Below, one piece after another: positions 8,673 to 50,988 of a DNA stretch of 64,000 bases (its first letter is position 1; each line of letters starts with the position of its first letter). The position numbers were made by a program, and so were the translations under genes. The notes below the pieces were generated by a model. It ran no database searches, had not been told where the DNA came from, and was given only the letters and a program-made list of their open reading frames with translations. Source of the stretch: a virus; IMG/VR virus record IMGVR_UViG_3300005077_000010, positions 1-64,000 of that record. The stretch is one strand, 5' to 3'.

Positions 8673-10811
8673 TTATTCTCCTTTAATATAAATATCAGAT
8701 ATAGGAATATTTACAAACTGGTTATTTTGAATATTTCCTATTATATCTAGCCCATTAATATAAATTGCATAATCTTTAGGGCCGCTCAGATAATTATTTT
8801 CGATTAAGATGTTTTGATGTGCAGTAAGACCGTGCATATTTTTAGAATTAATTACTTCATCATTAATACGAATACAGTTAATATTAGGTTCGATAATTTG
8901 GTTTTTAAGATAGGAAGAATTATTTACCCAGCCAGCATTACGCCAAAAAATATAATTAGGTTCAGAAAGAATACCATTATCAGTATTTCTAATGAATAAA
9001 TTATTAAAGATAAGCGAATTATTACCGTTTGCTCTTATTCCGTTTGCTCTATTAGGACCGAAAATTGAATATGTAATTAAAGTATTAGGGCTATTATGTT
9101 CTGGAATATCCGCCCAAGAATTATCAGGAATAGAAGAATTAAGAGGTTCATTAATTGTTATATCATATCTCATATCGCCATCAACGTAATATAGTGGTGA
9201 CACGGAAGTAATTTGAACCGTCTGTAAAATTTCTCTAGTTATTGAAGATAGAATTCTTAAAGTATCTCCTGGTTTGTATAAGAAATCTAGTACGGGCCAT
9301 TTTCTATTTGGAGATAAAGTAAGATTAATATGGTTATTTGACATAATAGTATAAACAAGGCCAGAAGAATTAGCGCAGTCATCTCCCAAAAATTTAGCTT
9401 CTGCTCCTAAAACTATTGGGCCTTGACGAGTAACTCCAGCGTGAAAGCCATCTCTATTAGCAGAAAGTAATCTAGGCTCAGTTGCAGTTTCAGGTATAGG
9501 TCCAGGTTCAATTGAAATCCATTTATAATAAGTATTTGTAGCTCTTGATCCTCTATGTCTTACTACCATTCCTACAGTATTCCAAAATGTAACTTCTTTT
9601 ATTTCTAATTCTCCATCTAAATATATAGAATCAATAGTAGAAAGTCCATCTCCCGGTTCTTCAAATACAACTTTTAGATTAGGTTTTAAAGTTCCATCAG
9701 TATTTAATATCATTCTTTGCATATCAATTGCTGTTGGTTGTAGTAATTTAAGATATGTTCCTTCTACTTCAAATCCAGTTACAAATCCGAAACCGCTATT
9801 TTGTCTACTAAAAGAATAATGACCATTCAAATTAGGTTCAAATACAAAATAAGTATCAGCATTATGAAAAGAAGTTTGTGTTAATGGATTAGGATAGCCG
9901 TCATCTAATTCTATTATAATTTCACGTTTATCAGATATACCCGCACCTTCATATACAAAATCTATTACTTTGCCTTGTGTAAAAGTTAAAGGATTATAAT
10001 CAATAGTAAATCCTTGAAGTTTAATTTTTGTTGTACTGGCAGAATATTCCATATAAACAGCAGGAACTCTTGCAGTATAAGTTAATATTGCCCCATAACC
10101 ATAAATATTAATACTTTTAGTTGGGAGAATTGCGTGAGTTACATTATGGTTACCTGGAGGAATACACACATTTTCCCAGTCGTTATTTAAAGCATAATTA
10201 ATAAGACAATTAACAGGGTCATCAGAAGAAAGACAATGAGTATTAAAATAATTAAAACTATCAGTACAATCGATTTCTAGTAATAAATAAGGATCTTTAT
10301 CATAGGAATAATCTTTAAAAATTTCAATACCAGAAAGAAATGTAGGAGTATTTGGATTATTAGATAACCAGCGCATATTTAACATATTATCAGATACTTT
10401 TACAAATGGGATACTAATTGAAGATACTTGGTCATTTGGGATAGTAGCTGTATCAATAATAGTAGGCAATTCTTTTTCCATTCTAACTTCAATTATGCCG
10501 TCGTCAATATTATGAGGTTTAATGAAAAACAATTTAATTCTATAGTAACCATTATTAAGAGGAATATCATGTCCAATAAGATATTTTCTACTAGCTAACA
10601 CAATAGGATTACCATAAACGGAGTAGTAAATATTGTCTACTATATTAGCTCCAATTAAATAAGGAATATCCGACTCCCAAAAGTTATTATATTCGTCTGT
10701 AAATGATCCATAATCTCCGACATTAAGAGCTTTTATTGCAGGAGTTATTTCTGGGTCAGGGCAACCAAAACAAAAACAAAGTAATAGTAACGCGAAAAGG
10801 TATTTATACAT
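8673..10811 (-). CDS. secreted/lipoprotein: malectin-like domain plus right-handed beta-helix (GH110-like)
   Basis: signal peptide with Cys; malectin-like N-domain ending LSGIEI; NRDGFH...GDDCAN motif. Confidence 0.6.
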   Translation of the reverse strand: MYKYLFALLLLCFCFGCPDPEITPAIKALNVGDYGSFTDEYNNFWESDIPYLIGANIVDNIYYSVYGNPIVLASRKYLIGHDIPLNNGYYRIKLFFIKPHNIDDGIIEVRMEKELPTIIDTATIPNDQVSSISIPFVKVSDNMLNMRWLSNNPNTPTFLSGIEIFKDYSYDKDPYLLLEIDCTDSFNYFNTHCLSSDDPVNCLINYALNNDWENVCIPPGNHNVTHAILPTKSINIYGYGAILTYTARVPAVYMEYSASTTKIKLQGFTIDYNPLTFTQGKVIDFVYEGAGISDKREIIIELDDGYPNPLTQTSFHNADTYFVFEPNLNGHYSFSRQNSGFGFVTGFEVEGTYLKLLQPTAIDMQRMILNTDGTLKPNLKVVFEEPGDGLSTIDSIYLDGELEIKEVTFWNTVGMVVRHRGSRATNTYYKWISIEPGPIPETATEPRLLSANRDGFHAGVTRQGPIVLGAEAKFLGDDCANSSGLVYTIMSNNHINLTLSPNRKWPVLDFLYKPGDTLRILSSITREILQTVQITSVSPLYYVDGDMRYDITINEPLNSSIPDNSWADIPEHNSPNTLITYSIFGPNRANGIRANGNNSLIFNNLFIRNTDNGILSEPNYIFWRNAGWVNNSSYLKNQIIEPNINCIRINDEVINSKNMHGLTAHQNILIENNYLSGPKDYAIYINGLDIIGNIQNNQFVNIPISDIYIKGE

Positions 10812-10822
10812 TTTAAAAATCC

Positions 10823-11248
10823 TTAATACTTATAAATTTTAGTAGTTAAAGGTTGATTCTTTTTTAGTATTCCGATGGTGCAGTTTTCAAGTTCATTTTC
10901 AGAGATGGTAAAATAAACTGTTCTGATATTTACATAATTAATATAATCCATACAGTAGGGACAGGGTTTAGCCATTGTAAAATTACTTTCTGCGTCGAGT
11001 CTAACAACAAGCATACTACTACCTTTAAGAGTAGTTTTAGCTTTTAGAATAGCATCAGCTTCAGCGTGTATAGAGTTAGGATATCTTTTAAATTTAGGAT
11101 GGAGTTTACGTTTATGAGCAAGAGGTTTATTATAGCCAGTAGAGATAACTATATTTTTATCAAAGATAACCGCACCCATTTTTTGTTTATGAGGTGATTT
11201 AATTGCCTCCTGGTATGCTAGATTTAGTAGGGTGTTCAGACTCAGCAT
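10823..11248 (-). CDS. zinc-dependent cytidine/dCMP deaminase family protein
   Basis: HAE and PCxxC motifs. Confidence 0.9.
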   Translation of the reverse strand: MLSLNTLLNLAYQEAIKSPHKQKMGAVIFDKNIVISTGYNKPLAHKRKLHPKFKRYPNSIHAEADAILKAKTTLKGSSMLVVRLDAESNFTMAKPCPYCMDYINYVNIRTVYFTISENELENCTIGILKKNQPLTTKIYKY

Positions 11249-11633
11249 TTGTTTGTTCCTTTTCTTGAATAGGAATCCAATTAGGAGTTAAAGTATACAT
11301 AATCCGGGTCATTTTATTTATACGTTCTTTATTAGAAATATTTGATTGTAAAATACCTAGATATGCTAATCCAAATAATGATCCTAACTTTATTAATTCT
11401 TGTTCATTCATTTTAGCTAAGTCATCAATTGTAATTTTTAGATATGTATTGCTATCAAGATAAATAAAAATATTATTAATTTCTGTAACTGTATCCAAGT
11501 CCATAGTTAGGTTATCAAACATTACAACCTCGTTATTTACTAAACTTTCAGGATCAGACCTCGTACAGTGTAAATAAAAGACAGTGAATATACATAAACT
11601 AAGTACTGCTATAATAGTTGTAGTATAAGACAT
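11199..11633 (-). CDS. membrane-anchored protein coupled to the gasdermin-like gene
   Basis: TAATG overlap at 11631-11635; N-terminal TM; paralog of 3446-3817. Confidence 0.7.
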   Translation of the reverse strand: MSYTTTIIAVLSLCIFTVFYLHCTRSDPESLVNNEVVMFDNLTMDLDTVTEINNIFIYLDSNTYLKITIDDLAKMNEQELIKLGSLFGLAYLGILQSNISNKERINKMTRIMYTLTPNWIPIQEKEQTNAESEHPTKSSIPGGN

Positions 11634-12319
11634 TAATCTTCCTCCTCTAACCAAAAGCCTCTAGCGGCAAAAGGTACAGTAGGCTCACCTGATATTTCAA
11701 TAGTTTGAGAATTTTTTTGAGCGTATGTCAATGTTGATTGGATATTAACCGATTTAGCATAGTTGACAATTGCTTCAATATCGATTCCCTTTTCAAAAGT
11801 CCAACACAATTTAGTAGCATAAAAAGCTTCAGTAACTACAAAGTCATTTAATAGCCAGTTATACAATTTATTTTCAGGAGTAATTTCAGAGAATAGTTTG
11901 TAAATTTTGTAAGTCACACTAGGGTCATTAAATACTCTAGCTTGGATTTTTTCAATTTGAATTGTACACTTTTGGTTTTTATTAAATGTAGTAAGAACAT
12001 CTAATCCATATTGAGGGAGTTTTATATCACCCTTTATTGTTAAATTATGAGTTAATGTTTCCAATGCAATATTAGCTGGGAGAATTATTGAAGTATAATC
12101 TTCTGCATTTTCATTATTAAACAACTGATATACAAAGCCATTAAAGGCATGAATACTATGTTTCTTTTTATAAATACCTAAAGAGAATATTTTTTTAAGA
12201 TAGAATAATGTTCCTTTTTCCCACATTACATTTAGCACTGCTCCTGGTATAATATGGGAATGAGAAGGAGATAGCAGTTCAGCATTTAATGTTTTTTCCA
12301 TATATGTTTTTAGATCCAT
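11633..12319 (-). CDS. putative gasdermin-like pore-forming protein
   Basis: LLSPSHSHIIPGAVL, FVVTEAFYATKL and TIEISGEPTVPFAARG motifs with two amphipathic beta-hairpin regions in gasdermin order. Confidence 0.6.
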   Translation of the reverse strand: MDLKTYMEKTLNAELLSPSHSHIIPGAVLNVMWEKGTLFYLKKIFSLGIYKKKHSIHAFNGFVYQLFNNENAEDYTSIILPANIALETLTHNLTIKGDIKLPQYGLDVLTTFNKNQKCTIQIEKIQARVFNDPSVTYKIYKLFSEITPENKLYNWLLNDFVVTEAFYATKLCWTFEKGIDIEAIVNYAKSVNIQSTLTYAQKNSQTIEISGEPTVPFAARGFWLEEED

Positions 12320-12342: not shown

Positions 12343-12413
12343 TGCCCCCAAGTGGTTACGATCCACTGTAATACAATTATAAGTTGTACATTCTACCATT
12401 GAATTATGGGGGC
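12343..12413 (-). tRNA. tRNA-Ile (UAU)
   Basis: GCCCCCA/UGGGGGC acceptor, AUUC/GAAU D-stem, UACAA-CUUAUAA-UUGUA anticodon arm, AGUGG-AUCGUAA-CCACU T-arm; no encoded CCA. Confidence 0.9.
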
Positions 12414-13154: not shown

Positions 13155-13616
13155 CTATGGTTGGATTCCTTCATATATTTGTCTTTCAGCAGGTTCAGTT
13201 AATAAAAATTCTTTAATAGGATATATTTCTACTACATCATATGAACTTAAAGCTAATCCATTTTTATTGTATGGGTTAGGATCATAAATTTGAGTTCCAT
13301 CCCAATAAATAGCATGAAATGAATCTTCTTCTCTTTGAGATCTAACTACAATATATGCTGGATTATTCTTTAATGAAAAAGATGTAGTTAACTTTGCGTT
13401 TTTTCTTACTGGGGATTTTACAGTATACCCACTTCCAATGTAAAATCCCCAGTGTAATAAGTAAGTAATAAAATCCTTGTCACTATAATTTTGTTTTTTT
13501 CCTATAATTTTTTCCACATCTTGTATTGTAGTGTGAGTAGCCATTGCCATTACGGCTCCTAAACAAATTTCCGATTCGGCTGGCTGTTTAATCGCTTTAA
13601 ATTTACGTTTAGTCAC
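13155..13616 (-). CDS. C39-like papain-fold cysteine peptidase
   Basis: Q-x6-C-LGAVMAM, HAIYWDG, IYDP catalytic arrangement. Confidence 0.7.
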   Translation of the reverse strand: MTKRKFKAIKQPAESEICLGAVMAMATHTTIQDVEKIIGKKQNYSDKDFITYLLHWGFYIGSGYTVKSPVRKNAKLTTSFSLKNNPAYIVVRSQREEDSFHAIYWDGTQIYDPNPYNKNGLALSSYDVVEIYPIKEFLLTEPAERQIYEGIQP

Positions 13617-15360: not shown

Positions 15361-15396
15361 TGTGTTCTCCTTCTAGTGTACTCTTTATATCCACTA

Positions 15397-15425
15397 CTAT
15401 ATCATATTCGGCGCGGTTTGTCAAG
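15397..15425 (-). promoter_or_regulatory. sigma70 promoter
   Basis: TTGACA-17-TATAGT; TACTTGAC context shared with the other minus-strand promoters. Confidence 0.75.
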
Positions 15426-18367: not shown

Positions 18368-19186
18368 TTAGAGTTGAAGTGCATTATCTACTGTCTCCTT
18401 AGCAAAAAACGGGTATTCCCATTCTTCAGCTACTAATCGTTGAATATAATTTCTGTTTTCAGTAAAAATTGGAATATTATCATCCACAATCCATTTTGTT
18501 TCTGGTGGATGCGGGCCGGGAATATTTAAATCTGCTATTCTATTAACATGAAATCCTACTTTAATTACGCATCTACCTCGCTTTAAATATACAGGTAAAT
18601 CATTCCAGTTTAGTCCGCGTTCCTCAAATAATTTATTCTGTAACTGAGAACAATTTAAATTTTGCAGTGCATTATGTGGAAAATTAGCCTGTGCATAAGA
18701 TTGAATTGAGTTTCTTGTGGCATCTTGTTGGCGTTCAATAAAATAATTAACTACTTCGTCTTTAGGTAGATTAAATGCTTTACAATCAAAAGTAGCAAAA
18801 GGGTTAACATCATCTTTTGTGTTTTGTGCCCAGAAATGATTAAAATACACAGAAGTTTTAGCCGCAGAAGTACTAACGATTTTGTTTATTTTATTGTCAA
18901 ACCACGGCTGAGTTTGTAAAGTTGTATAATTATTAATTAGTATATTTATTTCATCACTTTGAATAAACGCTAATCTGGCATTTTGCACTATTTTTTGACA
19001 CAATGTTAATGCTGTTTTATCCATAACTAAATTAATATTGTTATCCCACGGTTTTGCACATTGTAGTTTTTGGGTTAGCATATGAAAATTTTGTCCATCA
19101 ATTCTTAAAATTACTGGAAGTCTAGGAATGAGGTAATGACAGGATACAGCTTCATATTTTCGCATTCGTTCTGATAAACTCTCCAT
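18368..19186 (-). CDS. thg1: tRNA(His) guanylyltransferase Thg1 / TLP family
   Basis: RMRKYE, ILRIDGxNFH, QSDEI, FD.K, RQQDATRNS, KRG. Confidence 0.92.
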   Translation of the reverse strand: MESLSERMRKYEAVSCHYLIPRLPVILRIDGQNFHMLTQKLQCAKPWDNNINLVMDKTALTLCQKIVQNARLAFIQSDEINILINNYTTLQTQPWFDNKINKIVSTSAAKTSVYFNHFWAQNTKDDVNPFATFDCKAFNLPKDEVVNYFIERQQDATRNSIQSYAQANFPHNALQNLNCSQLQNKLFEERGLNWNDLPVYLKRGRCVIKVGFHVNRIADLNIPGPHPPETKWIVDDNIPIFTENRNYIQRLVAEEWEYPFFAKETVDNALQL

Positions 19187-19407
19187 AATTAATCCTCATA
19201 ATTAGAATTTTGTTTATTAATTTTATCCGGTCCTTCGTATTTTCGTTTCTTTTTTAATTTATTATAACTAAATTTAATTATGGCTACTACAGGAATTAAT
19301 GTTGTAGATACATTCCAGCTTCCAACCGTAGAATTACTTTTATACCATTTATATAATTTAGTCAATTGGTTCATTATTTTAATTTCCAAGGACAAAATTT
19401 TATTAAT

Positions 19408-19830
19408 TTATTTAGCATTTTGCATTTCTTGAATAATTTCTTTTACTGTATTACCATCAGTGTTATTACCTAGCTGTTTAAGTACTACACCTACTGCTTG
19501 TAATGCATTTTTAAATTGAGAAAAATCTATATTTAAGGAAATCCACTCTTTAATCTGATCTTTTGATAGTTGTTGTGGGATATAAGAATTAATAACAGAA
19601 ATAAACTCTTGAGAAGATTGAGGATTTAAGCCGGTTTGAATTACCACATTTAGAGTTTCTTCTGTATTTTTACGCAGTTTCTTTAGTAGTGAAATAACTT
19701 CATCGTCATTAGGAGTTTTAGTATTAAGTCTTTGAATTTCTCCTAGGATTACTTTACGATGACTTAATCCTGTTTTATTTCCTAATTTTAAACAATTTTG
19801 TATATCAGTTTTTATTGTATCAATTAACAT
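19408..19830 (-). CDS. GatB/YqeY domain protein
   Basis: YqeY pattern (IK.DI...LK...LGEI...D.EVI...Y.PQQLS); true start 19830, since the track extension overlaps the tRNA. Confidence 0.8.
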   Translation of the reverse strand: MLIDTIKTDIQNCLKLGNKTGLSHRKVILGEIQRLNTKTPNDDEVISLLKKLRKNTEETLNVVIQTGLNPQSSQEFISVINSYIPQQLSKDQIKEWISLNIDFSQFKNALQAVGVVLKQLGNNTDGNTVKEIIQEMQNAK

Positions 19831-19848
19831 ATAATCTCCTTTTTTGTT

Positions 19849-19919
19849 TGGGGCGAGAAGGAGTCGAACCTTCAAGAACTCATTAAAAGTGAGCCATGAT
19901 ACCGTTTCATCACCGCCCC
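19849..19919 (-). tRNA. tRNA-Lys (UUU)
   Basis: GGGGCGG/UCGCCCC acceptor, AUGA/UCAU D-stem, GCUCA-CUUUUAA-UGAGU anticodon arm, GAAGG-UUCGACU-CCUUC T-arm. Confidence 0.92.
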
Positions 19920-20153
19920 TACATCATTTACCCATTTTTAATATCTTGTTCCATAATTGTGTCGTTATCTATTCTAATTCGTTGAGTTTTAATATTAGGT
20001 TTGGTTTTTGTTTCTTGTTCTTCTATCCACCAAATATTTCTAAAAGGATATTTAATTTTATGATCTTTACAGTGAACTATATACATGTTTCCATCAAATG
20101 TTAATCTTTGTACGTCTTCATGCTCAATTGGTTTAATATTAGCTCTAAAAAGT

Positions 20154-20978
20154 TTAACTCGTACTATCATAAAACTCCTCCAATACAAGTGTAAGAAGTT
20201 CTTTAATTTTATCCTGGTTTGTTTCTTTTCCCCAAGGTAGTGACGAATTATTATACAAGTTTTCTAATTGAAGTTCGCGGTCTTTAAATCTTTGGTGTAT
20301 TTCGCTTAAAGAATAAAATCCTTGACGTATTAATTTCAATTCCTCTTTGTTTTGTTGTAAATTTAATGACTGCCCTGTTAAAATTTGTTCACACTCATTT
20401 AATAATCTAAATATATGAAGGGCAAATTTAACATCATAACCAAATTTAGTAATCAGTTCTTTTCTTTCTTCGCTAACTCGTTCATCGGGGTTTGTTTTAA
20501 TTTTACGTAATTGACTATATGCGTACCCTTTAAACTTATGAAAACAACCTTTATGAAGAAACAAATGACGTTGTGATCTAACTTTTTTAAATAAAGAAGA
20601 ACAAATTAATACACAATTGTCAGGAGTAAACAATGAATCAATCATATTAGGATTATTGTCAAATACTAAACTAAAATATTTTGTTATGCTGTATATGACA
20701 ACATCTAAGTGGTCTTTTTTTTGGCCTTTCTTAAATTGTACTTGGAATTGATTAAATGTAGGGAATATATCAAACCCATAAATATAACCAAACATACTAG
20801 GATAAACATATTCTTTAGGAGGAATAGTGACAGCATATATATCGGTATCGCTATTTTCGTGATTAATGCCATAAGACTGACTCCCCATAATTGTCATATA
20901 TTGAAGATTATCTAAAATCCATTCTTGTCCTGGTGTAATAACCTCTTTAATTTTTTGTACGATTGTGTCTTTATTCAT
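20154..20978 (-). CDS. Pol-beta-superfamily nucleotidyltransferase (RlaP/NrdC.11-like)
   Basis: GSQSYG...SDTD, NPNMIDSLF, FKGYAYSQ, YDVKFALH.FRL. Confidence 0.85.
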   Translation of the reverse strand: MNKDTIVQKIKEVITPGQEWILDNLQYMTIMGSQSYGINHENSDTDIYAVTIPPKEYVYPSMFGYIYGFDIFPTFNQFQVQFKKGQKKDHLDVVIYSITKYFSLVFDNNPNMIDSLFTPDNCVLICSSLFKKVRSQRHLFLHKGCFHKFKGYAYSQLRKIKTNPDERVSEERKELITKFGYDVKFALHIFRLLNECEQILTGQSLNLQQNKEELKLIRQGFYSLSEIHQRFKDRELQLENLYNNSSLPWGKETNQDKIKELLTLVLEEFYDSTS

Positions 20979-21009
20979 AATTACTATCCTTTCTATATTC
21001 AAAAAATAA

Positions 21010-21142
21010 GGAGAGGATTAAAGGGAAGCAGTATACATGATATCCTAAAGGCTAAACTAGGAGTGATTCTTAATAACTCTTCCTAAATAAGTTATATAGG
21101 TAAAGGAGGTTAAACCCTATATATTATACTTTAATCCTCTCC
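21010..21142 (-). ncRNA. structured intergenic element closed by a 14-bp perfect stem, immediately downstream of Ro60
   Basis: GGAGAGGATTAAAG/CTTTAATCCTCTCC; internal UAUAUAGG/CCUAUAUA hairpin; U-tract after the stem. Confidence 0.55.
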
Positions 21143-21148
21143 AAACCA

Positions 21149-22750
21149 CTAAAAACTATTATTAATAAATTGGTTAATTACAATAGGAATATCAGAACTT
21201 AATCCGGCAATATCTAACATTCCAGCATCATTAGGGTCAGCTATCGTAAATTTAGTTGATGTAAATGCCACCACAATCAATTTGGCATCAGGATTTACTG
21301 CACTTCTATATTGCTGAAGTGCTTGGTAGGGATGCGTTTTACCACACCAAGTTTCATTGTCAGTATAAATAATAAATGTATCATACTTAATATTATGTTT
21401 ACGCGCATAAAGCATAGGAAGCGCACAATCAGTACTTCCAAACCCCATACGAATAGCGATTGTACATGCATCCTCTAATCTAGTAGAAGGAGTAATAGGT
21501 AAAGGTTTAAACTGATGACTAAAAGCGTAAATAGCATAATTAGGTTCAGTATTAGCTGTTACAAGAGCCATTGCCGCCGCCGCTTCTATAGGCGTAATAA
21601 TATTTTGGTAGCTATCAGCAAAAGTCATAGAAGAAGAAACGTCTACTGCAAGCATAAGCTTTTTATTAGTAGGCTCTACTGTTTTAAATGCCAAATAAAA
21701 CGCCTTATCTAAAGCGTCCATAACTCTAGTAACAGGCGTCCATGTTAATTGGCCTTTAAATCCTCTACCTTGTGCATATGTTTTAGCCGCGACCAGAATT
21801 CCCATAGGATGAATTCTGGCAGTCTTTAAATAGTCTACATTTGTAAGTTTACTTTCAATTTTACTAATTAAGTCTAAACTATCATTAGTAAGAATTTCCA
21901 TACTAGAGAGCTTACCCAAATTACGAATTAAGGCTGTAAGAGGCATATTTTGCGCTAATGCTTCGTACACCACCTTATCGTTTTTAAACTTAGTAGGAAT
22001 CATTTCGTGAGTAAGCTTGTATTCATCTATCATTTTAGCTACTTTTTGTGGTGTAATAGTCTTATCTGCTAAAAGCCGCTTATATGCATCTAAAAGACGA
22101 ATACCTGTATCAGAATTAACTTTCTTTCGATCTGTACACCATTGATACAGATAACTATAATGGTAGTTTTTTGGCTTTACATGAATAATTCTAAGAGCAT
22201 CAGCCTGTGTCCACTTATCTCTATTTTGGTATTTAATCATTTGGTAAGCTAGATCGTCTACTGGCTTATTGTACCAAGCATTCATAATTTTTTTTACGCG
22301 CTTATTCCATTTACACAGCGTATTAACATAATTAGTAAATGTAAGATGGTGTGTGCCTGTTCTTACTATCATATTAATAGTAGAATGAGGGATGGTTTCA
22401 TTTTTTGGCAGATTAGCAATTACAACAGCAAGAGCAAATAAAGTTGGTTCTTGCTTATGCGCTAGTCCATTATAAGACACATCAATAATTTCATTTAATA
22501 CTCGTGCATAATCTTCTTTAATACACTCTTCTACACACTTAGTATTATTAAAAGCATGTGTAGTTTTATTTACATAATAAGTTCCAGATTCAGCACCAAG
22601 AATAAGAAATCTGCGTAGTTGCTGCCATTTAGAGATTTGAAATACAAAACCTCCAGCATTATTTTCTACTTGGTCTTCACGGGCTTTGTCAGTTTGAAGG
22701 GTATTGTCTAAATTGTGGTTGTAAATAGCAGCATAATTAATCTTATTCAT
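21149..22750 (-). CDS. rsr: Ro60/TROVE domain RNA-binding protein (Rsr)
   Basis: NNAGGFVF, RRFLILG..GTYY, KYQNR, ALIRNL, vWA DVSSSM and TDNETW; start 22750 after AAGGAG. Confidence 0.95.
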   Translation of the reverse strand: MNKINYAAIYNHNLDNTLQTDKAREDQVENNAGGFVFQISKWQQLRRFLILGAESGTYYVNKTTHAFNNTKCVEECIKEDYARVLNEIIDVSYNGLAHKQEPTLFALAVVIANLPKNETIPHSTINMIVRTGTHHLTFTNYVNTLCKWNKRVKKIMNAWYNKPVDDLAYQMIKYQNRDKWTQADALRIIHVKPKNYHYSYLYQWCTDRKKVNSDTGIRLLDAYKRLLADKTITPQKVAKMIDEYKLTHEMIPTKFKNDKVVYEALAQNMPLTALIRNLGKLSSMEILTNDSLDLISKIESKLTNVDYLKTARIHPMGILVAAKTYAQGRGFKGQLTWTPVTRVMDALDKAFYLAFKTVEPTNKKLMLAVDVSSSMTFADSYQNIITPIEAAAAMALVTANTEPNYAIYAFSHQFKPLPITPSTRLEDACTIAIRMGFGSTDCALPMLYARKHNIKYDTFIIYTDNETWCGKTHPYQALQQYRSAVNPDAKLIVVAFTSTKFTIADPNDAGMLDIAGLSSDIPIVINQFINNSF

Positions 22751-22787
22751 GGCGGTTCTCCTTATTAAATTAAGGTTGAACAAATAT

Positions 22788-22906
22788 TTGGACAAAATCG
22801 TTAAAGGAAAATATCTGCCTCGTTATCAAGAGGCAGATAGGATGGGCAAGTGTCACAGTAAGCCCATATCATTAGTATTATAGGTAATCCTTTAACAGCG
22901 GTCCAA
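22788..22906 (-). ncRNA. Y RNA-like ncRNA 1 (~119 nt)
   Basis: UUGGAC-CGCU-GUUAAAGGA-UUACC...UCCUUUAAC-GAUUUU-GUCCAA; two internal hairpins; directly upstream of Ro60. Confidence 0.8.
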
Positions 22907-23003: not shown

Positions 23004-25352
23004 TTATCTCCATTTACAATTATTATAAATACTATTTTTATTTATTCTTTTTACATATTTTGATACAAGTAATAGCATTTCAATTATTACTTCTTCAGTT
23101 AAGAAATTAGGTTTTAGTCCTAAGTCAAATAGTGAAGTATATTCGGGTTCATAAAATTTAACATCTTCGTTTTCTACTCTAGGATTTGGAGTATTTTGAC
23201 TTTTTATTTGAAGTCCTATTTTCTCCCCTGCACTTATTATTTTATGTGCAAGTTCATTAACATTAAAGGTTTCTGTCATTTGATGATAAATTTTTAATTC
23301 TTTAGCATTAATAGGGTTTGTTGCAAATAAATAAACGCTCTGTAATGAGTCATTCAAATTAATATATCCGCGTTGTTGTCCTCCTTTACCATAAATAGTA
23401 AGAGGATAACCACAAACTGCCTGAACAATAAATCTGTTGACGCAATTATGTACAATAAGCCCATCTACTAAATAAGTATTATCGTTTTCTACTTCTAAGT
23501 TATAAACAGTAATGTTTTGGCTTTTTATGCGGTTGACTCCAAGTATTTTATAAGCAACATATACATTGTCGTCATGCAAATTTTTAGCGCTATAAGATTC
23601 ATTATTTATAGTAGTAATAAACTTATTAAGGTATTTTTTGGGAATTTGTAGTTGGTGGTCATCAAAAATACCATTTATTTTATGTGTTTTGAACTCACAA
23701 AGAATATGCCTCTTACGGCTAAATAATGTTGTCGGTATCCCCCAGCCAATTAAAATTGTTTTAATTTGCTGTAGTAGTTGTTTATTACACGAACAAAAAG
23801 AACCTGCTGTAAGAGATTTACTTAGCCATCCATCACCTTTAAAATACCCATAAACAAGCCCTGTAGTCACTTTTAGTCTAATTAGTCTTTTATCGATACG
23901 TTTGTGCTTTGCATGTTGTCCACACAATTTAATTAATAGCTGCGTTAGTATTATTGAATTAACTATAATACGACAACAATTGTCCGTATATTTAAGAGTA
24001 GGCATTAATCCAAATTGGGATTTAATTATATTACACGCATCTTCAATTAAGTCATCTTCATGTGCGTTAAATGATAGAGAAATTCGGTATTTTGTTGCAT
24101 CTCCTTCGGCTAAATAATATCCTAATAACCGTGCAACGTCACCATTAATATTAATATACTCATTAATGCCCACGCCACCTTTTGCGTTTTGGGACATCGC
24201 ATTTTGGGGATACACTTTACCCTGGTGTACGTACAAATTTAAATGTTTTAACTCCTCTTTAAGATCTAAAACTAGTTCTGGTTGAGAAACAAATGTAGGA
24301 GCATACAAAAAGTATTCTTTAGTAGACCCGTTAATTAGTTTGTGTATTTCTTCACTTGTTTTCCATCCTAATTGCCTTATCTCTACATTTTGTCCTTTTC
24401 CGTTTCTATATAGCTCCCCAAGTAAAAATGGGTGTTCTTTTGTAGCTGTTATAGGTGTTTGCCCACGGTATTTAATTTGGAATTCATATAAATCTCCGGT
24501 GTATTCTTTTTTAAAAGAATAAGAAACTTTTTGGGGTCTTCCTTTATCAGTTATAACTAAATCGCCTATCTTAATATTTTGTATGCTTTGAAGCGTCCCG
24601 TCTGCCATTGTAATAGGCGTATCTTTTGTAAAACATGTTCCGTAATGTTCCCCGTAATAAAAAGCTGTAAATAAATTTTCATCTTTTTCCATTTCATCAG
24701 TTATAGCACCTACAACTGGACCTTGCATACTATCATAAGCTTTCAATCCAAAAGTACGACAAAAAAACCAAATTAAATCTGTATCCATAATTTTAGTCAT
24801 GTGATATACGCTTGGCCCTTCCCTTGGATATAGCCTACGATCTTTTCTTCCTTTATATTCGTATTCTAAAAACCCATCTGCTGGAATTGCTGTATTAGGA
24901 CACGTGAACTCACCGCTTGTGCCCAACTTAATTAGTACAATGTTTCTATCAATTTCTTTTATTGCTTCTAATAAATTATATGTCCCAATTAAATTATTTG
25001 TTATTGTGCGCCTTCCATTTTCATAGTTGAACATACTCCAAGGTGAAGAAGGTTGTTCAGCATAATGCAATATTACAGTAGGTTTGAATTCCTCAATCAC
25101 AGAATATAAAAATTTATAGTTAGTTATATCCCCAATTTTACATTCCATTTTATTACTATCGTGTTTATTATTCCAGTATCTAACTTTTTCTGGTAAAGTT
25201 TTAATTGGAAATAGCGGTTCTTCATTTACTTCTAATGCAAATTTACGTTTTATATAATTGTCTATTCCTAATACTGTATGTCCTCTTTTAGAAAAATACA
25301 TCATCGCGGGCCAGCCTATATATCCATCAGCCCCAAGTATTAAAACATTCAT
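23004..25352 (-). CDS. sqdB: UDP-sulfoquinovose synthase (SqdB/Agl3 SDR family), intein-containing
   Basis: GADGYIGWP, HYAEQPSSPWS, KLGTSGEF, YHMTK, QGPV.G, GT|C.NRF.VQA, YGKGGQQRG, NPR.E; 385-aa extein. Confidence 0.88.
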   Translation of the reverse strand: MNVLILGADGYIGWPAMMYFSKRGHTVLGIDNYIKRKFALEVNEEPLFPIKTLPEKVRYWNNKHDSNKMECKIGDITNYKFLYSVIEEFKPTVILHYAEQPSSPWSMFNYENGRRTITNNLIGTYNLLEAIKEIDRNIVLIKLGTSGEFTCPNTAIPADGFLEYEYKGRKDRRLYPREGPSVYHMTKIMDTDLIWFFCRTFGLKAYDSMQGPVVGAITDEMEKDENLFTAFYYGEHYGTCFTKDTPITMADGTLQSIQNIKIGDLVITDKGRPQKVSYSFKKEYTGDLYEFQIKYRGQTPITATKEHPFLLGELYRNGKGQNVEIRQLGWKTSEEIHKLINGSTKEYFLYAPTFVSQPELVLDLKEELKHLNLYVHQGKVYPQNAMSQNAKGGVGINEYININGDVARLLGYYLAEGDATKYRISLSFNAHEDDLIEDACNIIKSQFGLMPTLKYTDNCCRIIVNSIILTQLLIKLCGQHAKHKRIDKRLIRLKVTTGLVYGYFKGDGWLSKSLTAGSFCSCNKQLLQQIKTILIGWGIPTTLFSRKRHILCEFKTHKINGIFDDHQLQIPKKYLNKFITTINNESYSAKNLHDDNVYVAYKILGVNRIKSQNITVYNLEVENDNTYLVDGLIVHNCVNRFIVQAVCGYPLTIYGKGGQQRGYINLNDSLQSVYLFATNPINAKELKIYHQMTETFNVNELAHKIISAGEKIGLQIKSQNTPNPRVENEDVKFYEPEYTSLFDLGLKPNFLTEEVIIEMLLLVSKYVKRINKNSIYNNCKWR
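23445..24635 (-). mobile_element. intein with LAGLIDADG homing endonuclease in sqdB (397 aa)
   Basis: CFTKDTPI...ATKEHPF...LLGYYLAEGD...GYFKGDG...VYNLEV...VHN|C. Confidence 0.95.
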
Positions 25353-39928: not shown

Positions 39929-42550
39929 ATGGCTGAATTAGAAGTAACTATGGAAGAATGGTTACAATTATGCTATAAAAGACCTGATGTATTTGCACAT
40001 TATTATTTTGATCATATAATTAGATGCCCTAGTAGTAAGTTTCATTTTTTACTTTATGATTTAATCTATAAAATTAACCAAAGTAACTATTCTAATCGTG
40101 TTGCTATTGCCGCCCCAAGAGGTAACGCTAAAACACAAATTATTCATGTTATTCTACCTATTTGGTGTATCGCGTTTGAACAAAAAAAATACATTGTAAT
40201 GGTTAGTGATACAAGTAGAGCGGTAGAAGCTAATTTGGAATCTATTAAATATGAGTTAACAACAAATGAAAAATTAGCAGAACATTTTCCTCATATAGTA
40301 GGGGAAGGGCCGAAATGGAAAAAGGAAGAAATTGATACAAATAATAATGTACGTATTGTAGCTTTAGGTGCAGGAAAACAATTACGCGGTACACAAAAAA
40401 AGGGTGCTAGAAGACCTGACGCAATCCATCTTGACGATCTCGAAAATGATGAGCATGTCAATACAAAAGCGCAAAGAGATAAATTAGAGGATTGGCTAAC
40501 TAAAGTTATTTTAGGTATGGAGGGTGCAAAAGAAGAAGGTTATAAAATGGATGTTATTTTAACGGGAACAATTATTCATCCAAAAAGTTTATTAGCTAAA
40601 TTAGTCAGCCCATCTGAGTTTTTAGGTTGGGATAAACATTTATTTAAAGCGGTTTATAAAGATTCTAAATCTCCATTATGGCAAACATGGAAAGACATTT
40701 ATACTAATTATTCAGATAGTAATAGAATTGAAACAGCTGAATTATTTTTTAATACGCACAAAAAAGAAATGTTAGAAGGGGTTGAAGTTTTATGGCCCGA
40801 AGGTGACCCATATTATAGAATACAAGAATATAAAATTAATGCCGGAATAAAAGCCTATAGTTGTTTTAAACAAGGCACTCCTATTATTTTAGAGGATTAC
40901 AGTTTTAAAAACATCGAAGATATAAAAGAAGGTGATAAAGTAATAACTAAAGACGGAAGTTCACAAAAAGTAACATACGTGAATTCTAGGTATACCGATT
41001 CTGATATATATAAAATTAAAATAGCGGGGGTATCTCAAACAATAGAAGCAACTGAAGAACATCCATTTTTAATTTGGCCCCAAGTAAAATATAAACAATA
41101 CATACTAAATCACCAACATTTATCAGCATATTTAAGCGGATTTAATACTGAATATAAACAGCAAACAGTAAATAACAGAATACTTACTAACGAAACCCGA
41201 TGGAAGTTTGCAAAGGATATAAATGTCGGGGATGCTGTTATTATGCCACTACCGCCAAAAGTGCAGGGAAAACACCTATGTGACCCTGATTGGTGGTGGT
41301 TAATTGGGTATTATTTAGCGGAAGGGTGGACAAGTACAACAAATAATACAGTAAATTTTGCGGCTCATATTGATGAAATCCCATATTTTAATGAAGTAAT
41401 TAGAATAAGTAAAAAATATAACTACGGACAAACTTTTACTATACGAGAAGGTAGTAGTGAAAGTGATAAGGTTATTACTTTAACTTTTAGTTCTCCTGAG
41501 TTATCACAGTATCTTAAATTATATGGAAAAGGAGCAAAGAACAAACATTTACCGTATAATGAAATTAAATGTTTGTGCAAAGATTGTTTTTCTTCTTTAT
41601 GGGGTGGTTATATTGCAGGAGATGGATATGACATTCGAGGTTATAAAGGAGTTAATAGTATTAGTTGGCAGTTACTACATGATTTTCAAATTGGGTGGTT
41701 AAGACATAGAGAAATTACTTATATGTATAAAATGAAAGATCATGGAGAAATTAACTTTCGTGGGAAAACATATTCTACTCAGCCTTTATGGAGTTTACAA
41801 AAAATAGAAACTAAACGGGCAAAACAAGTTTGGATATATGAAGAAAATTTATACAGTAAAATTCAAAAGATAGAGAGAGTTATAACAAATCAGCCGACAA
41901 AAGTATATGGTATTTCAGTAGACGTTAACCACAACTACACAATTCCAAATGCGGTTGTCAAGAATAGCGAAAAACAGAATAATCCAATTGATCCAAGTTC
42001 TGTGCTATTTGATACAGAAAAAATAGTTTATTATAACAGAAGTGATATTGATTTAGATACTTTAATTATTTATGGCGCAATTGATCCTGCTAGTGGAGAT
42101 GCTAAAAAGAAAGGGGACTTAACTGCTATTGTAACTATCGGTAAAAGTCCTAAAACTGGTATAATGTATGTTTTAGATGTGAAAGCTGATAATACACTAA
42201 GCCCTTCTGATAGTATTAAATATATTAAAAGAATGCATGAATTATATGATTATAGATATTTTGGTATTGATTCTGACGCATTGAAATTATATAAAGATTT
42301 AATATTACGAGAAGTACCTAGTTTAATGGGAAAACTAAAATTATATAACTTAAGAGTAAATAAACGTTCTCGTATAGATAGATTAGAACCTCCCATAAAT
42401 AGTGGATTAATACAAATACAAAAAACTCAATACGAATTACTAGATGAGTTAATGCACTTTCCAAAATCAGAATACGATGATGTACTTGATGCTTTGGAAA
42501 TTGCGTCTACTGTAGCTGGTAATCGTAAATGTAGGATTTTAACATACTAG
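39929..42550 (+). CDS. terL: terminase large subunit, intein-containing
   Basis: APRGNAKT Walker A, RPD.I.LDDLE Walker B, IDPA and DD..DALE nuclease motifs. Confidence 0.95.
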   Translation: MAELEVTMEEWLQLCYKRPDVFAHYYFDHIIRCPSSKFHFLLYDLIYKINQSNYSNRVAIAAPRGNAKTQIIHVILPIWCIAFEQKKYIVMVSDTSRAVEANLESIKYELTTNEKLAEHFPHIVGEGPKWKKEEIDTNNNVRIVALGAGKQLRGTQKKGARRPDAIHLDDLENDEHVNTKAQRDKLEDWLTKVILGMEGAKEEGYKMDVILTGTIIHPKSLLAKLVSPSEFLGWDKHLFKAVYKDSKSPLWQTWKDIYTNYSDSNRIETAELFFNTHKKEMLEGVEVLWPEGDPYYRIQEYKINAGIKAYSCFKQGTPIILEDYSFKNIEDIKEGDKVITKDGSSQKVTYVNSRYTDSDIYKIKIAGVSQTIEATEEHPFLIWPQVKYKQYILNHQHLSAYLSGFNTEYKQQTVNNRILTNETRWKFAKDINVGDAVIMPLPPKVQGKHLCDPDWWWLIGYYLAEGWTSTTNNTVNFAAHIDEIPYFNEVIRISKKYNYGQTFTIREGSSESDKVITLTFSSPELSQYLKLYGKGAKNKHLPYNEIKCLCKDCFSSLWGGYIAGDGYDIRGYKGVNSISWQLLHDFQIGWLRHREITYMYKMKDHGEINFRGKTYSTQPLWSLQKIETKRAKQVWIYEENLYSKIQKIERVITNQPTKVYGISVDVNHNYTIPNAVVKNSEKQNNPIDPSSVLFDTEKIVYYNRSDIDLDTLIIYGAIDPASGDAKKKGDLTAIVTIGKSPKTGIMYVLDVKADNTLSPSDSIKYIKRMHELYDYRYFGIDSDALKLYKDLILREVPSLMGKLKLYNLRVNKRSRIDRLEPPINSGLIQIQKTQYELLDELMHFPKSEYDDVLDALEIASTVAGNRKCRILTY
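40862..41965 (+). mobile_element. intein with LAGLIDADG endonuclease in terL (368 aa)
   Basis: YS|CFKQGTPI...ATEEHPF...IGYYLAEG...GYIAGDG...VVKN|SEKQNNP. Confidence 0.93.
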
Positions 42551-47679: not shown

Positions 47680-48519
47680 ATGAAAGAGAATAGAAAAACA
47701 GGCGCGATTCATCAACTAGATAAAAAATTAAGTGTTCCGAAACATAATATTATTGGATTAGATGGAAAACCCTTAAAGAAAGAATTTAGGCGGTTTGATG
47801 CTGATCCTGACAAAAAGAAATTGCTTTGTATTTATGTTCCTGTATCTATGCCTTTTGTATACAGAAAGTTTTTTGCCAATTTTTTACGAATCATTCATCC
47901 TTCTCATTTTATTAATTGGAAAAAGTATGGTGTAGTAAGTTATTATACACAGATACAAACGACATTTCCATTATGTAAAAATAGAAATGAAGCGGTATTA
48001 AAAGCATTAGAGCATGAAGCAGATTATATAATGTTTGTGGATGCTGATATGCAACATCCGGCAGAGATTATAACACAATTATTAGCGCATCAGTTACCAG
48101 TTGTTAGTGGTATGTATTTTCATCAAGCTCCGCCTCATTTACCTGTAGTTTATAAGCACAAAGAAGGTATTCACTATACACATTATTATGATTATCCTAA
48201 AGATGAGTTATTTACTGTAGATTTAGTGGGAATGGGATGTATGTTGGTAGACACTAAAATCTTTAAACATATAGAATTACCTTATTTTGGTTATCGGTCT
48301 AGTAGAAAAGATGGGATAGTTGAAGGGACAGAAGAAGTTATATTTTGTGAAAAAATTAGAGAAGCCGGTTTTGATATAGTTGTCGATCCAAAAATTCAGT
48401 GTACTCATTTTGCTATTGAAGATGTATCTGAAGTTTCATTTGACAGTTATATGAATGAATACAAAACAGGGCAAGCATTATTAGAAAAATTTGGAGAAAC
48501 TTATAGAAATGCTACTTAA
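47680..48519 (+). CDS. GT2-like glycosyltransferase within the virion module
   Basis: RN......L...ADYIMFVDADM, GMGCML, E...FC, DP.I.C.H. Confidence 0.85.
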   Translation: MKENRKTGAIHQLDKKLSVPKHNIIGLDGKPLKKEFRRFDADPDKKKLLCIYVPVSMPFVYRKFFANFLRIIHPSHFINWKKYGVVSYYTQIQTTFPLCKNRNEAVLKALEHEADYIMFVDADMQHPAEIITQLLAHQLPVVSGMYFHQAPPHLPVVYKHKEGIHYTHYYDYPKDELFTVDLVGMGCMLVDTKIFKHIELPYFGYRSSRKDGIVEGTEEVIFCEKIREAGFDIVVDPKIQCTHFAIEDVSEVSFDSYMNEYKTGQALLEKFGETYRNAT

Positions 48520-48778
48520 TATAATTTTGTATATATTATGTGTTTATGGTATAGCAACAATTATTTCTTCAGAATATATATTTTCATTAGTTATAGATAA
48601 ATTTAAAAAATATAAAACTTTGTATTATTTACTAACTTGTAATAAATGTATGACAGTTTGGGTTGGATTTATAGTATCTTTATTAGGGTTTGGTATCATT
48701 AGTCCTATAGTTGACCCATTTATTGCTTATACATGCACACTATTTTTAAATAAATTTCTCGAAGATCCTGAAATTTAG
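48509..48778 (+). CDS. DUF1360-like membrane protein
   Basis: TM segments, LLTCNKCMTVWV. Confidence 0.6.
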   Translation: MLLNIILYILCVYGIATIISSEYIFSLVIDKFKKYKTLYYLLTCNKCMTVWVGFIVSLLGFGIISPIVDPFIAYTCTLFLNKFLEDPEI

Positions 48779-48846
48779 TTGATTATTAAATTTTAAAATG
48801 ATATCATAATATAGAATGCTATAAATACGAAGGGAGTATTCTATCT

Positions 48847-49440
48847 ATGGATATCATACTAAGTAACGCCCATTCTAGTTATGCTAAAGGTGCTTCTGGA
48901 GATTTTGGAGGCAAACTTTATGCTGAATATGATTTATCTGCCTCTATAAATAAATTATTATACGATTTACTTATTAAAGCTGGGTTTACTACTACTATTA
49001 TTGACGCTTCTCATATAACTCCATATTCAAAATCATTAGAATATAAAGCTAAAGCAATTAGTGATTACACCCCAAAAGTGGCAGTTGAAACTCATTTTAA
49101 CGCAGGGCCGAATGTCGTTTTATCTAAAGTTAGTTGCGGAATGGAAATTGTATATACTGATAGGCATACTAAACAATGTGAATTATTAGCTCAATGTTGT
49201 ATGCAAAGTATGATACATTCACTGCCTTTTAAAATACGAAGAGATGGTAGTGGATTATATAAACATAATAAAATTTATTTATTAAATACTGTTACATGTC
49301 CAATTATTATTGTCGAAGTTTGTTTTATTACTCATCCTATAGATAGATTATTTTTATTACACCCTAGAGCTATTGATATTATTGCTAATAGCTTATGTAC
49401 TGGCATTATTAATTTTTTAAAAGTTAACAAGGGGGAGTAA
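48847..49440 (+). CDS. N-acetylmuramoyl-L-alanine amidase (Amidase_3), putative endolysin
   Basis: H...E, HFNA, P.IIVEVCFI Zn/catalytic motifs. Confidence 0.85.
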   Translation: MDIILSNAHSSYAKGASGDFGGKLYAEYDLSASINKLLYDLLIKAGFTTTIIDASHITPYSKSLEYKAKAISDYTPKVAVETHFNAGPNVVLSKVSCGMEIVYTDRHTKQCELLAQCCMQSMIHSLPFKIRRDGSGLYKHNKIYLLNTVTCPIIIVEVCFITHPIDRLFLLHPRAIDIIANSLCTGIINFLKVNKGE

Positions 49441-49441
49441 T

Positions 49442-49783
49442 GTGGGAGATAGTACATTCGGCAAAGAGGATATGTATTTATTTATGGAATCCCACAAGAA
49501 TATGGTGGAACTCCATACTCTTGTGTTAACTCAACTTCAAGCTTTATTAAAAAGTAACGAAGAATCAGTTAAAAAAACAGATCAAGTATTACAAGCGATT
49601 AGTAATATGACAGATAAAATGGGAGATTATGTAGAAAAAGCTGGACAAATACAAATTGCAATGGCACAAAATCAATCTGAAAATACTAAAGCCCATGAAG
49701 CTATTAAAAATTATATGTATGTGGGTTGGGTAGGAATGGCAAGTATTATTTTATTACTTGTGTTAACATTTATAATAGTATAG
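49442..49783 (+). CDS. coiled-coil protein with C-terminal TM, possibly holin-like
   Basis: topology and position after the amidase. Confidence 0.45.
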   Translation: MGDSTFGKEDMYLFMESHKNMVELHTLVLTQLQALLKSNEESVKKTDQVLQAISNMTDKMGDYVEKAGQIQIAMAQNQSENTKAHEAIKNYMYVGWVGMASIILLLVLTFIIV

Positions 49784-49794
49784 CAGGATTAAAA

Positions 49795-50988
49795 ATGGAT
49801 AAGATAGATCAAATTACAACGGCCACAATTCTTGATAACATTCCAGCATTAGTATACGTAAAAGATACCAATAATAGATTATTAAAAGTCAATAACTCAT
49901 TAGCCGTTGCATTAAATCTACAAAAGGACAAAATAGAAAACAAATCATGTTGGGAGTTATGTCCTCATGATTTAGCAGACATATATTGGGAACATGATCA
50001 ACTTATCCAAATAAATGGCGAACCGATAAAAAATATTGTAGAAGAAATAGTAGTTAACGGGGTTAGACGATGGCATAGAACAGATAAATATCCATTAAAA
50101 AACGAAGCAGGAAAAGTAATAGGTATTGTGGGTATTTCAATTGATATCCACGCAAATAAGAAAGAACACGAACAATTAGTACAACTGCAAACAGCAATGG
50201 AATTTTCTCATAGTGTAGTAATAGTTACAGACACAAAAGGAATTATTACATATGTTAATCCGCGTTTTACACAAGTTACAGGTTATACGCGAAAAGAAGC
50301 ATTAGGTAAAAGTACTAGGATGCTAAAATCTGGTAAACTTTCTCCATCTATATATACACATTTATGGGATACTATTACTAATGGAAATGTATGGAGTGGA
50401 GAATTTTTAAATAAGACAAAATCAGGAGAATATTATTGGGAAGTAGGAAATGTAGCCCCAGTTAGAAATACAGAAGGAGAAATCACTAATTTTATTAAAG
50501 TATCTTCCGCATTAACTGATTTAAAACGTACTGTATTTAATGTTTGGAATGTATTTGAGGATTCCAATAATTTAATTGTCGTGCTAGATAAAACAATGCA
50601 AATAATTTATTGTAATCAAGCAGTGGCGTTTCAATTAGGATTCCCATCATCAAATGAACTTATAGGAAAAAGTTGGAAAGAATTTATTCCTACAGAGTCA
50701 AAACATATTGTTGAATTAGTACATAGTGAATTAATTAAAGGATCATATAAAGTAAAAGAATTTGTAAATGATATTCAAGATATTAATGGTAATACTTATA
50801 TGGTACGGTGGTTTAACTCAAATATTAATGGAAATACGGGGTTAACTTTTAGTATTGGTGTAGTAGCAAAATCTACAATCAATATTAATGACTCTGTTGA
50901 AACTATACGTAAACATTTTAAAATGTCTATTGATAAAGATAAACATTTTATTTTAGCCATGAAAAAAAGTTTACAACATGAAATATAA
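49795..50988 (+). CDS. triple PAS-domain protein with no output domain
   Basis: three PAS/PAC repeats (VYVKD..NR; ITYVNPRFTQVTGY..EALG...W.GEF.N..K.GE.YW; I.YCN). Confidence 0.9.
   Translation: MDKIDQITTATILDNIPALVYVKDTNNRLLKVNNSLAVALNLQKDKIENKSCWELCPHDLADIYWEHDQLIQINGEPIKNIVEEIVVNGVRRWHRTDKYPLKNEAGKVIGIVGISIDIHANKKEHEQLVQLQTAMEFSHSVVIVTDTKGIITYVNPRFTQVTGYTRKEALGKSTRMLKSGKLSPSIYTHLWDTITNGNVWSGEFLNKTKSGEYYWEVGNVAPVRNTEGEITNFIKVSSALTDLKRTVFNVWNVFEDSNNLIVVLDKTMQIIYCNQAVAFQLGFPSSNELIGKSWKEFIPTESKHIVELVHSELIKGSYKVKEFVNDIQDINGNTYMVRWFNSNINGNTGLTFSIGVVAKSTININDSVETIRKHFKMSIDKDKHFILAMKKSLQHEI

Follow-up and report, generated by a model that had tools for sequence, protein, structure and literature searches.

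The gene at positions 11633–12319 (minus strand) of the analysed window, which comprises the first 64 kb of a 91,659-bp IMG/VR virus record (CheckV, 80% complete), encodes a 228-residue protein, P0001, whose predicted fold is that of the gasdermin pore-forming domain. Bacterial gasdermins (bGSDMs) and most animal gasdermins are executioners of host cell death, kept inactive by an inhibitory C-terminal part until a protease removes it (10.1101/2021.06.07.447441; PMC10153256). Here we describe the predicted fold of P0001, the absence of a tail and of a protease, the location of the gene in a phage, and its coupling to a downstream gene. We propose, with a probability of about 55%, that P0001 is a soluble gasdermin homolog that corresponds to the pore-forming domain and naturally lacks the tail, and that it would act as a cleavage-independent permeabiliser of the host membrane in phage conflict.

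The open reading frame starts with an ATG, ends with a TAA at 11633–11635, and opens with the residues MDLKTYM. An earlier note, made from the DNA letters, had described a 228-residue frame with a series of motifs and a stop four residues after the last of them; the frame is present, every quoted motif was found in its translation, and the residues EEED follow ...RGFWL at the end. In an exhaustive HMMER search over 1.84 billion cluster representatives (E ≤ 1e-3), 39 proteins matched, most of them full length (200–236 residues) and a few of them shorter fragments. The frame is therefore a real gene. A 574-residue repeat-like match from this search looks spurious. The relatives all come from metagenomes or metagenome-assembled genomes (MAGs), mostly as singletons on short contigs. 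In the maximum-likelihood tree, P0001 groups with three AT-rich relatives, P0002–P0004 (support 100/99), and P0005 is the sister of these four (99/95), with the rest of the family outside.

The assignment to a phage, also made in the earlier note, is clear from the large terminase and the portal in the record. A Cas4-like exonuclease, a Lar-type restriction-alleviation protein, and a dCMP deaminase flank the gasdermin-like gene on the same strand, and the GC content around the gene is uniform (0.29–0.31). The gene is present in a single copy in the record. No integrase, resolvase, or serine recombinase was found in the record, incomplete as it is, suggesting that this uncultured phage is probably lytic.

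For the fold, profile comparisons gave weak but consistent matches. P0001 and its close relatives showed no meaningful match in Pfam, PHROGs, or NCBIfam, and P0001 had no Pfam match although Pfam 38.1 includes the Bact_GSDM family. The PADLOC bGSDM model matched P0001 with an E-value of 0.0033, placing residues 160–220 on profile positions 148–211 of 257, and matched 9 of 34 relatives, with a best E-value of 1.2e-6. When the family profile was compared with the PDB, the two top hits were the Vitiosangium bGSDM (8sl0 and 7n51; E 0.02–0.03), in which family profile positions 69–216 cover residues 61–218 of the chain. A further PDB profile match, "SUSP1 Vipr protein" (E 0.14 over 42 residues), was judged to be due to chance, and its fold is absent from the structure searches. 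The identity of P0001 to known bGSDMs is only 13–16%, and single-sequence searches gave no link between the P0001 family and the canonical bGSDMs.

Structure prediction pointed to the same fold. AlphaFold2 with the single sequence gave an unusable model (pLDDT 35.8), whereas with alignment A1 it gave a confident model of the soluble state (pLDDT 86.9, pTM 0.83). This model superposes on the twisted beta-sheet N-terminal domain fold of the solved gasdermins; in the Foldseek search against the PDB, gasdermins occupied all of the 18 top rows, 7n51 scoring E 2.7e-5 with a TM of 0.62. The ESM Atlas has its own, independent model of P0001, which matches a cluster in which 79% of the members belong to PF26164 (Bact_GSDM), with a TM of 0.63. 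These results support the claim of the earlier note that P0001 is a homolog of the gasdermin pore-forming domain, and the failure to superpose that would have spoken against it was not observed.

The earlier note had also claimed that an inhibitory C-terminal peptide is missing, and this is borne out both by the alignment to 7n51 and by the C-termini of the family. Residues 1–228 of the P0001 model align to residues 6–224 of 7n51, the structure of the 266-residue Vitiosangium protein, indicating that P0001 stops after the last core strand and before the cleavage loop. For the Vitiosangium bGSDM, the active form without the C-terminal domain has 237 residues (the length in 8sl0), and the inhibitory C-terminal domain has 29 residues (PMC10153256). 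Positions 212–257 of the PADLOC bGSDM profile are left unmatched by P0001. In most relatives, the C-terminus falls a few residues at most from the conserved motif VPFAxRG, and the longest extra tails amount to 9–11 residues. The family's only long forms are P0053 and its cluster mates (316 residues), which carry a 97-residue N-terminal extension; it is absent from the 219-residue members of the same 90% cluster, and probably reflects a mis-called start rather than a fusion.

The lipid anchor is missing as well. Canonical bGSDMs carry a conserved N-terminal palmitoyl-cysteine together with an inhibitory peptide of 20–40 residues, and the palmitoylated cysteine is needed for full toxicity (10.1101/2021.06.07.447441; PMC10153256). 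The only cysteines of P0001 are C118 and C172, neither of which is near the N-terminus, and none of the 34 aligned relatives has a cysteine at residues 2–5, in agreement with what the earlier note had read from P0001. Alignment A1 contains no family-wide conserved cysteine; C172 is not conserved. C118 (window positions 11966–11968) opens the long core strand that follows the first finger, is conserved in P0001–P0004 only, and may be a clade-specific site of lipidation or of a disulfide.

In addition, no protease was found to accompany the gene. The neighbours of the P0001 gene include no protease family, the 91.7-kb record contains no CHAT or Peptidase_C14 protein, and an adjacent protease, which canonical bGSDM systems have as a caspase-like, CHAT, subtilase, or trypsin-type gene, is absent at all four readable loci of the family. 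A 153-residue protein (13155–13616, minus strand), for which an embedding-based search gave a lead to Peptidase_C39 (13% of one cluster), was considered as a C39-like protease partner and rejected, as it has no Pfam or PDB support. It groups with hypothetical proteins in large clusters whose members are mostly viral, and is a common phage protein rather than a dedicated partner.

Two regions of the family appear able to form amphipathic, membrane-spanning beta-hairpins. The period-2 (beta) hydrophobic moment was calculated on the family-averaged hydropathy and compared with 300 column shuffles. The whole protein contained 52 strongly beta-amphipathic windows against 12.6 ± 7.7 in the shuffles, of which the maximum was 47 (0 of 300 reached 52), and these windows are concentrated at residues 90–119 and 174–198. 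The predicted finger 1 (residues 89–120; 11960–12055, minus strand) consists of two beta-amphipathic strands, at residues 90–99 and 107–119, across which the moment exceeds 1.3 in the family profile; the strands are arranged around an LPQYG turn (residues 101–105). In the HMM alignment, the LPQ[YF]G motif is placed on Vitiosangium L90–G94, adjoining V89, a residue of the beta3–beta5 fingertip (PMC10153256). The predicted finger 2 (residues 174–201; 11717–11800, minus strand) shows beta periodicity family-wide. [quoted passage not shown] In the clade of P0001–P0004, some finger strands give a weaker beta-amphipathic signal than they do elsewhere in the family.

The conserved motifs fall on the bGSDM fingertip and on residues relevant to toxicity. 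In alignment A1 (n = 34), G26 and P216 are invariant, P25, W33, G105, F130, and G221 are near-invariant (G221 at ≥90%), and the family motifs are PG, LPQ[YF]G, D-x-LVTE, and VPFAxRG. The last of these, VPFAARG in P0001 (residues 215–221; 11657–11677, minus strand), forms the last core strand and is the most conserved motif of the family, with the protein ending 7 residues on. It aligns to Vitiosangium L211–C217, with VPFA on L211–G214, and the Vitiosangium substitutions L211A and F213A partly disrupt or reduce cell death (PMC10153256).

These features bear on the possibility that the gasdermin fold is kept without pore formation, such that P0001 might bind lipids or ligands as a soluble protein, or serve as a scaffold, and would resemble the inactive gasdermin state only. 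The AlphaFold2 model is confidently that of a soluble state, the family lacks both the palmitoyl-cysteine and the tail, and stand-alone chromosomal copies of the gene must be harmless most of the time, all of which speaks for such a protein. However, the strong family-wide beta-amphipathic periodicity falls exactly in both finger regions, including the segment modelled as a helix, and conservation is highest in the motifs that fall on the fingertip and on residues at which mutations make bGSDMs less toxic. We consider a non-pore-forming protein to be unlikely, while still giving it real weight.

The distribution of the family indicates that the tail-less architecture is not peculiar to the phage. 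For two short loci found in a metagenome scan (L002 and L003; 31–32% identity), the gene stands alone, with neither a protease nor a coupled downstream gene. A third locus, L004, holds a 74%-identical copy of another clade on a 184-kb contig of a Verrucomicrobiae MAG, where the gene also stands alone. To one side of it lie MarR, isochorismatase, and MFS genes, to the other ferritin-like and GMC-oxidoreductase genes; neither a protease nor lysis genes adjoin it. A homolog of DruA (Druantia) lies about 4 kb upstream (2875–3768 of L004, minus strand), a faint hint of a defence neighbourhood. The family was carried by 1 of 401 sampled Verrucomicrobiota genomes; the PADLOC bGSDM model had no match in 301 Verrucomicrobiota genomes, but its controls matched nowhere either, which makes that search uninformative.

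Among phages, no relative was found. A tblastn search of 50,697 phage records returned only chance matches (E ~0.6), pattern scans of IMG/VR with alignments A2 and A5 yielded no relatives, and the BFVD structure library contained no match (all TM <0.25), so that the search for phage homologs proposed in the earlier note came back empty. Taken together with the loci above, these results indicate that the family is rare, patchily distributed, stand-alone, and not restricted to phages, and that the missing tail is a family trait rather than a phage-specific truncation, as the same tail-less family occurs in the Verrucomicrobiae chromosome. The view of the earlier note that a phage has co-opted a gasdermin is plausible and unproven; the missing tail, being shared with the chromosomal gene, does not set the phage protein apart.

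The same distribution bears on another suggestion of the earlier note, namely that P0001 is an anti-defence decoy or dominant negative that co-assembles with, or caps, the activated gasdermin of the host and thereby blocks abortive infection. The gene lies beside the anti-restriction gene Lar, and poxviruses suppress pyroptosis with gasdermin homologs that they have captured (PMC10715236), both of which fit a decoy. The poxvirus proteins, however, stem from the regulatory C-terminal domain and have their effect on caspases, and do not correspond to the pore-forming half. P0001 has no cleavage site with which to compete for a protease, and at 13–16% identity to canonical bGSDMs it could co-assemble only if the host gasdermin came from this same rare family. 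Moreover, the membrane-insertion periodicity and the fingertip motif are kept rather than lost, and the tail-less architecture recurs in a bacterial chromosome, in which a decoy would serve no purpose. A decoy is thus the least supported of the roles that the earlier note had offered, and we regard it as highly improbable.

For the genomic neighbourhood, the sequence suggests a single transcription unit containing the P0001 gene. A sigma-70-like promoter match (15396–15424, minus strand; TTGACA-17-TATAGT, 11 of 12 positions, with a TG extension) is the best on its strand; it is a consensus match only, the number of matches in the region being no higher than in shuffles. No terminator-like site was found on the minus strand between this match and the P0001 gene, and the match may mark the start of the operon. 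A tRNA-Ile(UAU) gene (12343–12413, minus strand; ARAGORN) precedes the start codon of the P0001 gene by 23 nt and itself follows the Lar gene. The P0001 gene uses ATA for 6 of its 21 Ile codons. A second tRNA gene in the window, tRNA-Lys(UUU), occupies 19849–19919. Two genes downstream of the gasdermin-like gene, in the same operon, a 712-residue protein (8673–10811, minus strand) has a lipoprotein-like leader (…LLLLCFCFGC) and beta-helix-like repeats, with no Pfam or PHROG family.

Immediately downstream of P0001, a 144-residue orphan protein (11199–11633, minus strand) has one N-terminal hydrophobic segment resembling a transmembrane (TM) segment, at residues 1–25. Its ATG (11633–11631) overlaps the TAA of the P0001 gene by one base (TAATG), and a Shine–Dalgarno-like GAGGAGG (11641–11647, minus strand) lies within the EEED codons, 7 nt from that ATG. 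The overlap and the nearby GAGGAGG indicate that the two genes are translationally coupled. The orphan has no Pfam or PHROG family and no homolog in a word search of 5.8 billion proteins, and its gene is absent beside the relatives of P0001; it cannot, therefore, be a family-wide regulator. It could be a phage-specific modulator. As to a pore held off by a partner protein, which the earlier note had also suggested, the predicted complex of P0001 with residues 24–144 of the orphan scored 0.02, which speaks neither for nor against binding.

The probable lysis genes lie elsewhere. A conventional-looking cassette at 48491–49783, on the opposite strand and 37 kb from the gasdermin-like gene, consists of a holin-like 95-residue protein with at least two TM segments (48491–48778), an Amidase_3 endolysin with neither a signal peptide nor an N-terminal TM segment (48847–49440), directly downstream of the former, and a 113-residue tail-anchored coiled-coil protein (49442–49783), directly downstream of the amidase. 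All three are on the plus strand, and are followed by a triple-PAS protein (49726–50988, plus strand).

The earlier note had named a lysis effector among the possible roles, and P0001 could in principle be an auxiliary or alternative one, accumulating to a threshold in a holin-like manner and opening very large holes in the inner membrane through which the cytoplasmic amidase would reach the wall. An Amidase_3 protein without an N-terminal signal or TM segment needs a large hole, bGSDM pores of more than 200 Å have been reported (10.1101/2021.06.07.447441; PMC10153256), and, as with holins, concentration could set the timing of a protein that has no inhibitory tail. On the other hand, the window already provides the cassette described above, the gasdermin-like gene lies among Lar, the exonuclease, and the dCMP deaminase rather than among late genes, and the bacterial relatives are not beside lysis genes. 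The separate cassette weakens the claim, and we judge an auxiliary role in lysis to be rather improbable. The accessory and anti-defence neighbourhood, taken together with the separate cassette, argues against P0001 as the main holin, which it probably is not, and favours a role in conflict or takeover.

The preferred reading, a tail-less and cleavage-independent permeabiliser, would operate as follows. P0001 would be transcribed with the accessory and anti-defence genes (Lar and the Cas4-like exonuclease), coupled to the orphan single-pass membrane protein, and would accumulate in the cytoplasm as a soluble monomer with a stable, inactive-like fold. P0001 contains no TM-like segment, the maximum 19-residue Kyte–Doolittle mean being 1.01. 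A non-proteolytic trigger, which may be a concentration threshold, the state of the membrane or its lipids, or a bound partner, would cause the helical proto-fingers to refold into beta-hairpins, and the refolded protein would oligomerise and permeabilise the inner membrane of the host. The role would be a phage-controlled permeabilisation for conflict, in the form of competitor exclusion or host takeover, rather than the canonical lysis at the end of the cycle. Pore formation, its trigger, and this biological role are what we infer here. As neither a tail nor a protease is present to restrain the protein, the simplest reading is a self-contained gasdermin, and the stand-alone chromosomal copies mean that the protein cannot be constitutively lethal. 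A constitutive pore expressed early would harm the phage, and some form of control must be assumed.

Compared with the known bGSDM–protease systems (Vitiosangium 7n51/8sl0, Bradyrhizobium 7n50, and Runella 7n52; Johnson et al., 10.1101/2021.06.07.447441, PMC10153256), which have a cleavage loop and an inhibitory peptide of 20–40 residues, P0001 lacks both of these elements as well as the N-terminal palmitoyl-cysteine and the neighbouring protease, is encoded by a phage, and belongs to a separate sequence family. Cleavage-independent gasdermins of eukaryotes are represented by Trichoplax GSDM (8jyv/8jyw) and Neurospora RCD-1 (8jyx–8jyz), from which P0001 differs in having no family-conserved cysteine and in being a single copy. 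Control is exerted by a disulfide-locked dimer in Trichoplax GSDM and by two antagonistic alleles in RCD-1. Phage holins, which are small integral membrane proteins timed by concentration, share with the proposed activity a phage-encoded breach of the inner membrane without a protease step, and possibly also concentration-dependent triggering; P0001, in contrast, is a 228-residue soluble, beta-rich protein without a TM segment, and its gene lies outside the lysis cassette.

Among viruses, a parallel is offered by poxvirus A47, also a diverged gasdermin-derived gene that is recognisable mainly by structure (PMC10715236). Vaccinia A47, however, is a homolog of the regulatory C-terminal domain and interferes with caspases (PMC10715236), whereas P0001 corresponds to the pore-forming N-terminal domain without a regulatory part. 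The phage gene thus reverses the usual roles, the virus carrying the executioner half where poxviruses carry the regulatory half. Full-text searches of the literature brought up no description of a gasdermin encoded by a phage or of a family of bacterial gasdermins without a tail, and the only viral gasdermins found there are the poxvirus C-terminal domain homologs.

We tentatively suggest, at odds well short of even, that P0001 is the first virus-encoded gasdermin pore-forming domain and represents an undescribed family, free of a tail, a protease, and a lipid anchor and set off by a non-proteolytic trigger, which a lytic phage would use as a weapon for competitor exclusion or for host takeover or killing at a time set by the phage, possibly gated by the orphan membrane protein whose gene is coupled to that of P0001. 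Gasdermins that have kept the resting fold and the membrane fingers, yet have no tail, protease, or lipid anchor, would have to be activated in some other way. If active, P0001 would offer a minimal, protease-free pore former for study, and a new kind of phage membrane effector.

Other genes of the window include a cluster at 18368–22795 (minus strand) that encodes a Thg1-like tRNA-His guanylyltransferase, an RlaP-type nucleotidyltransferase, and a 548-residue PHROG_850 "RNA-binding protein". An NAD-dependent epimerase/dehydratase gene (23004–25352, minus strand; 782 residues) is interrupted by a Hint and LAGLIDADG intein. For the large terminase (39929–42550, plus strand; 873 residues), the PHROG_38 match is split in two, and residues ~311–680 share PHROG matches with the intein part of the epimerase, suggesting that the terminase probably carries an intein as well.
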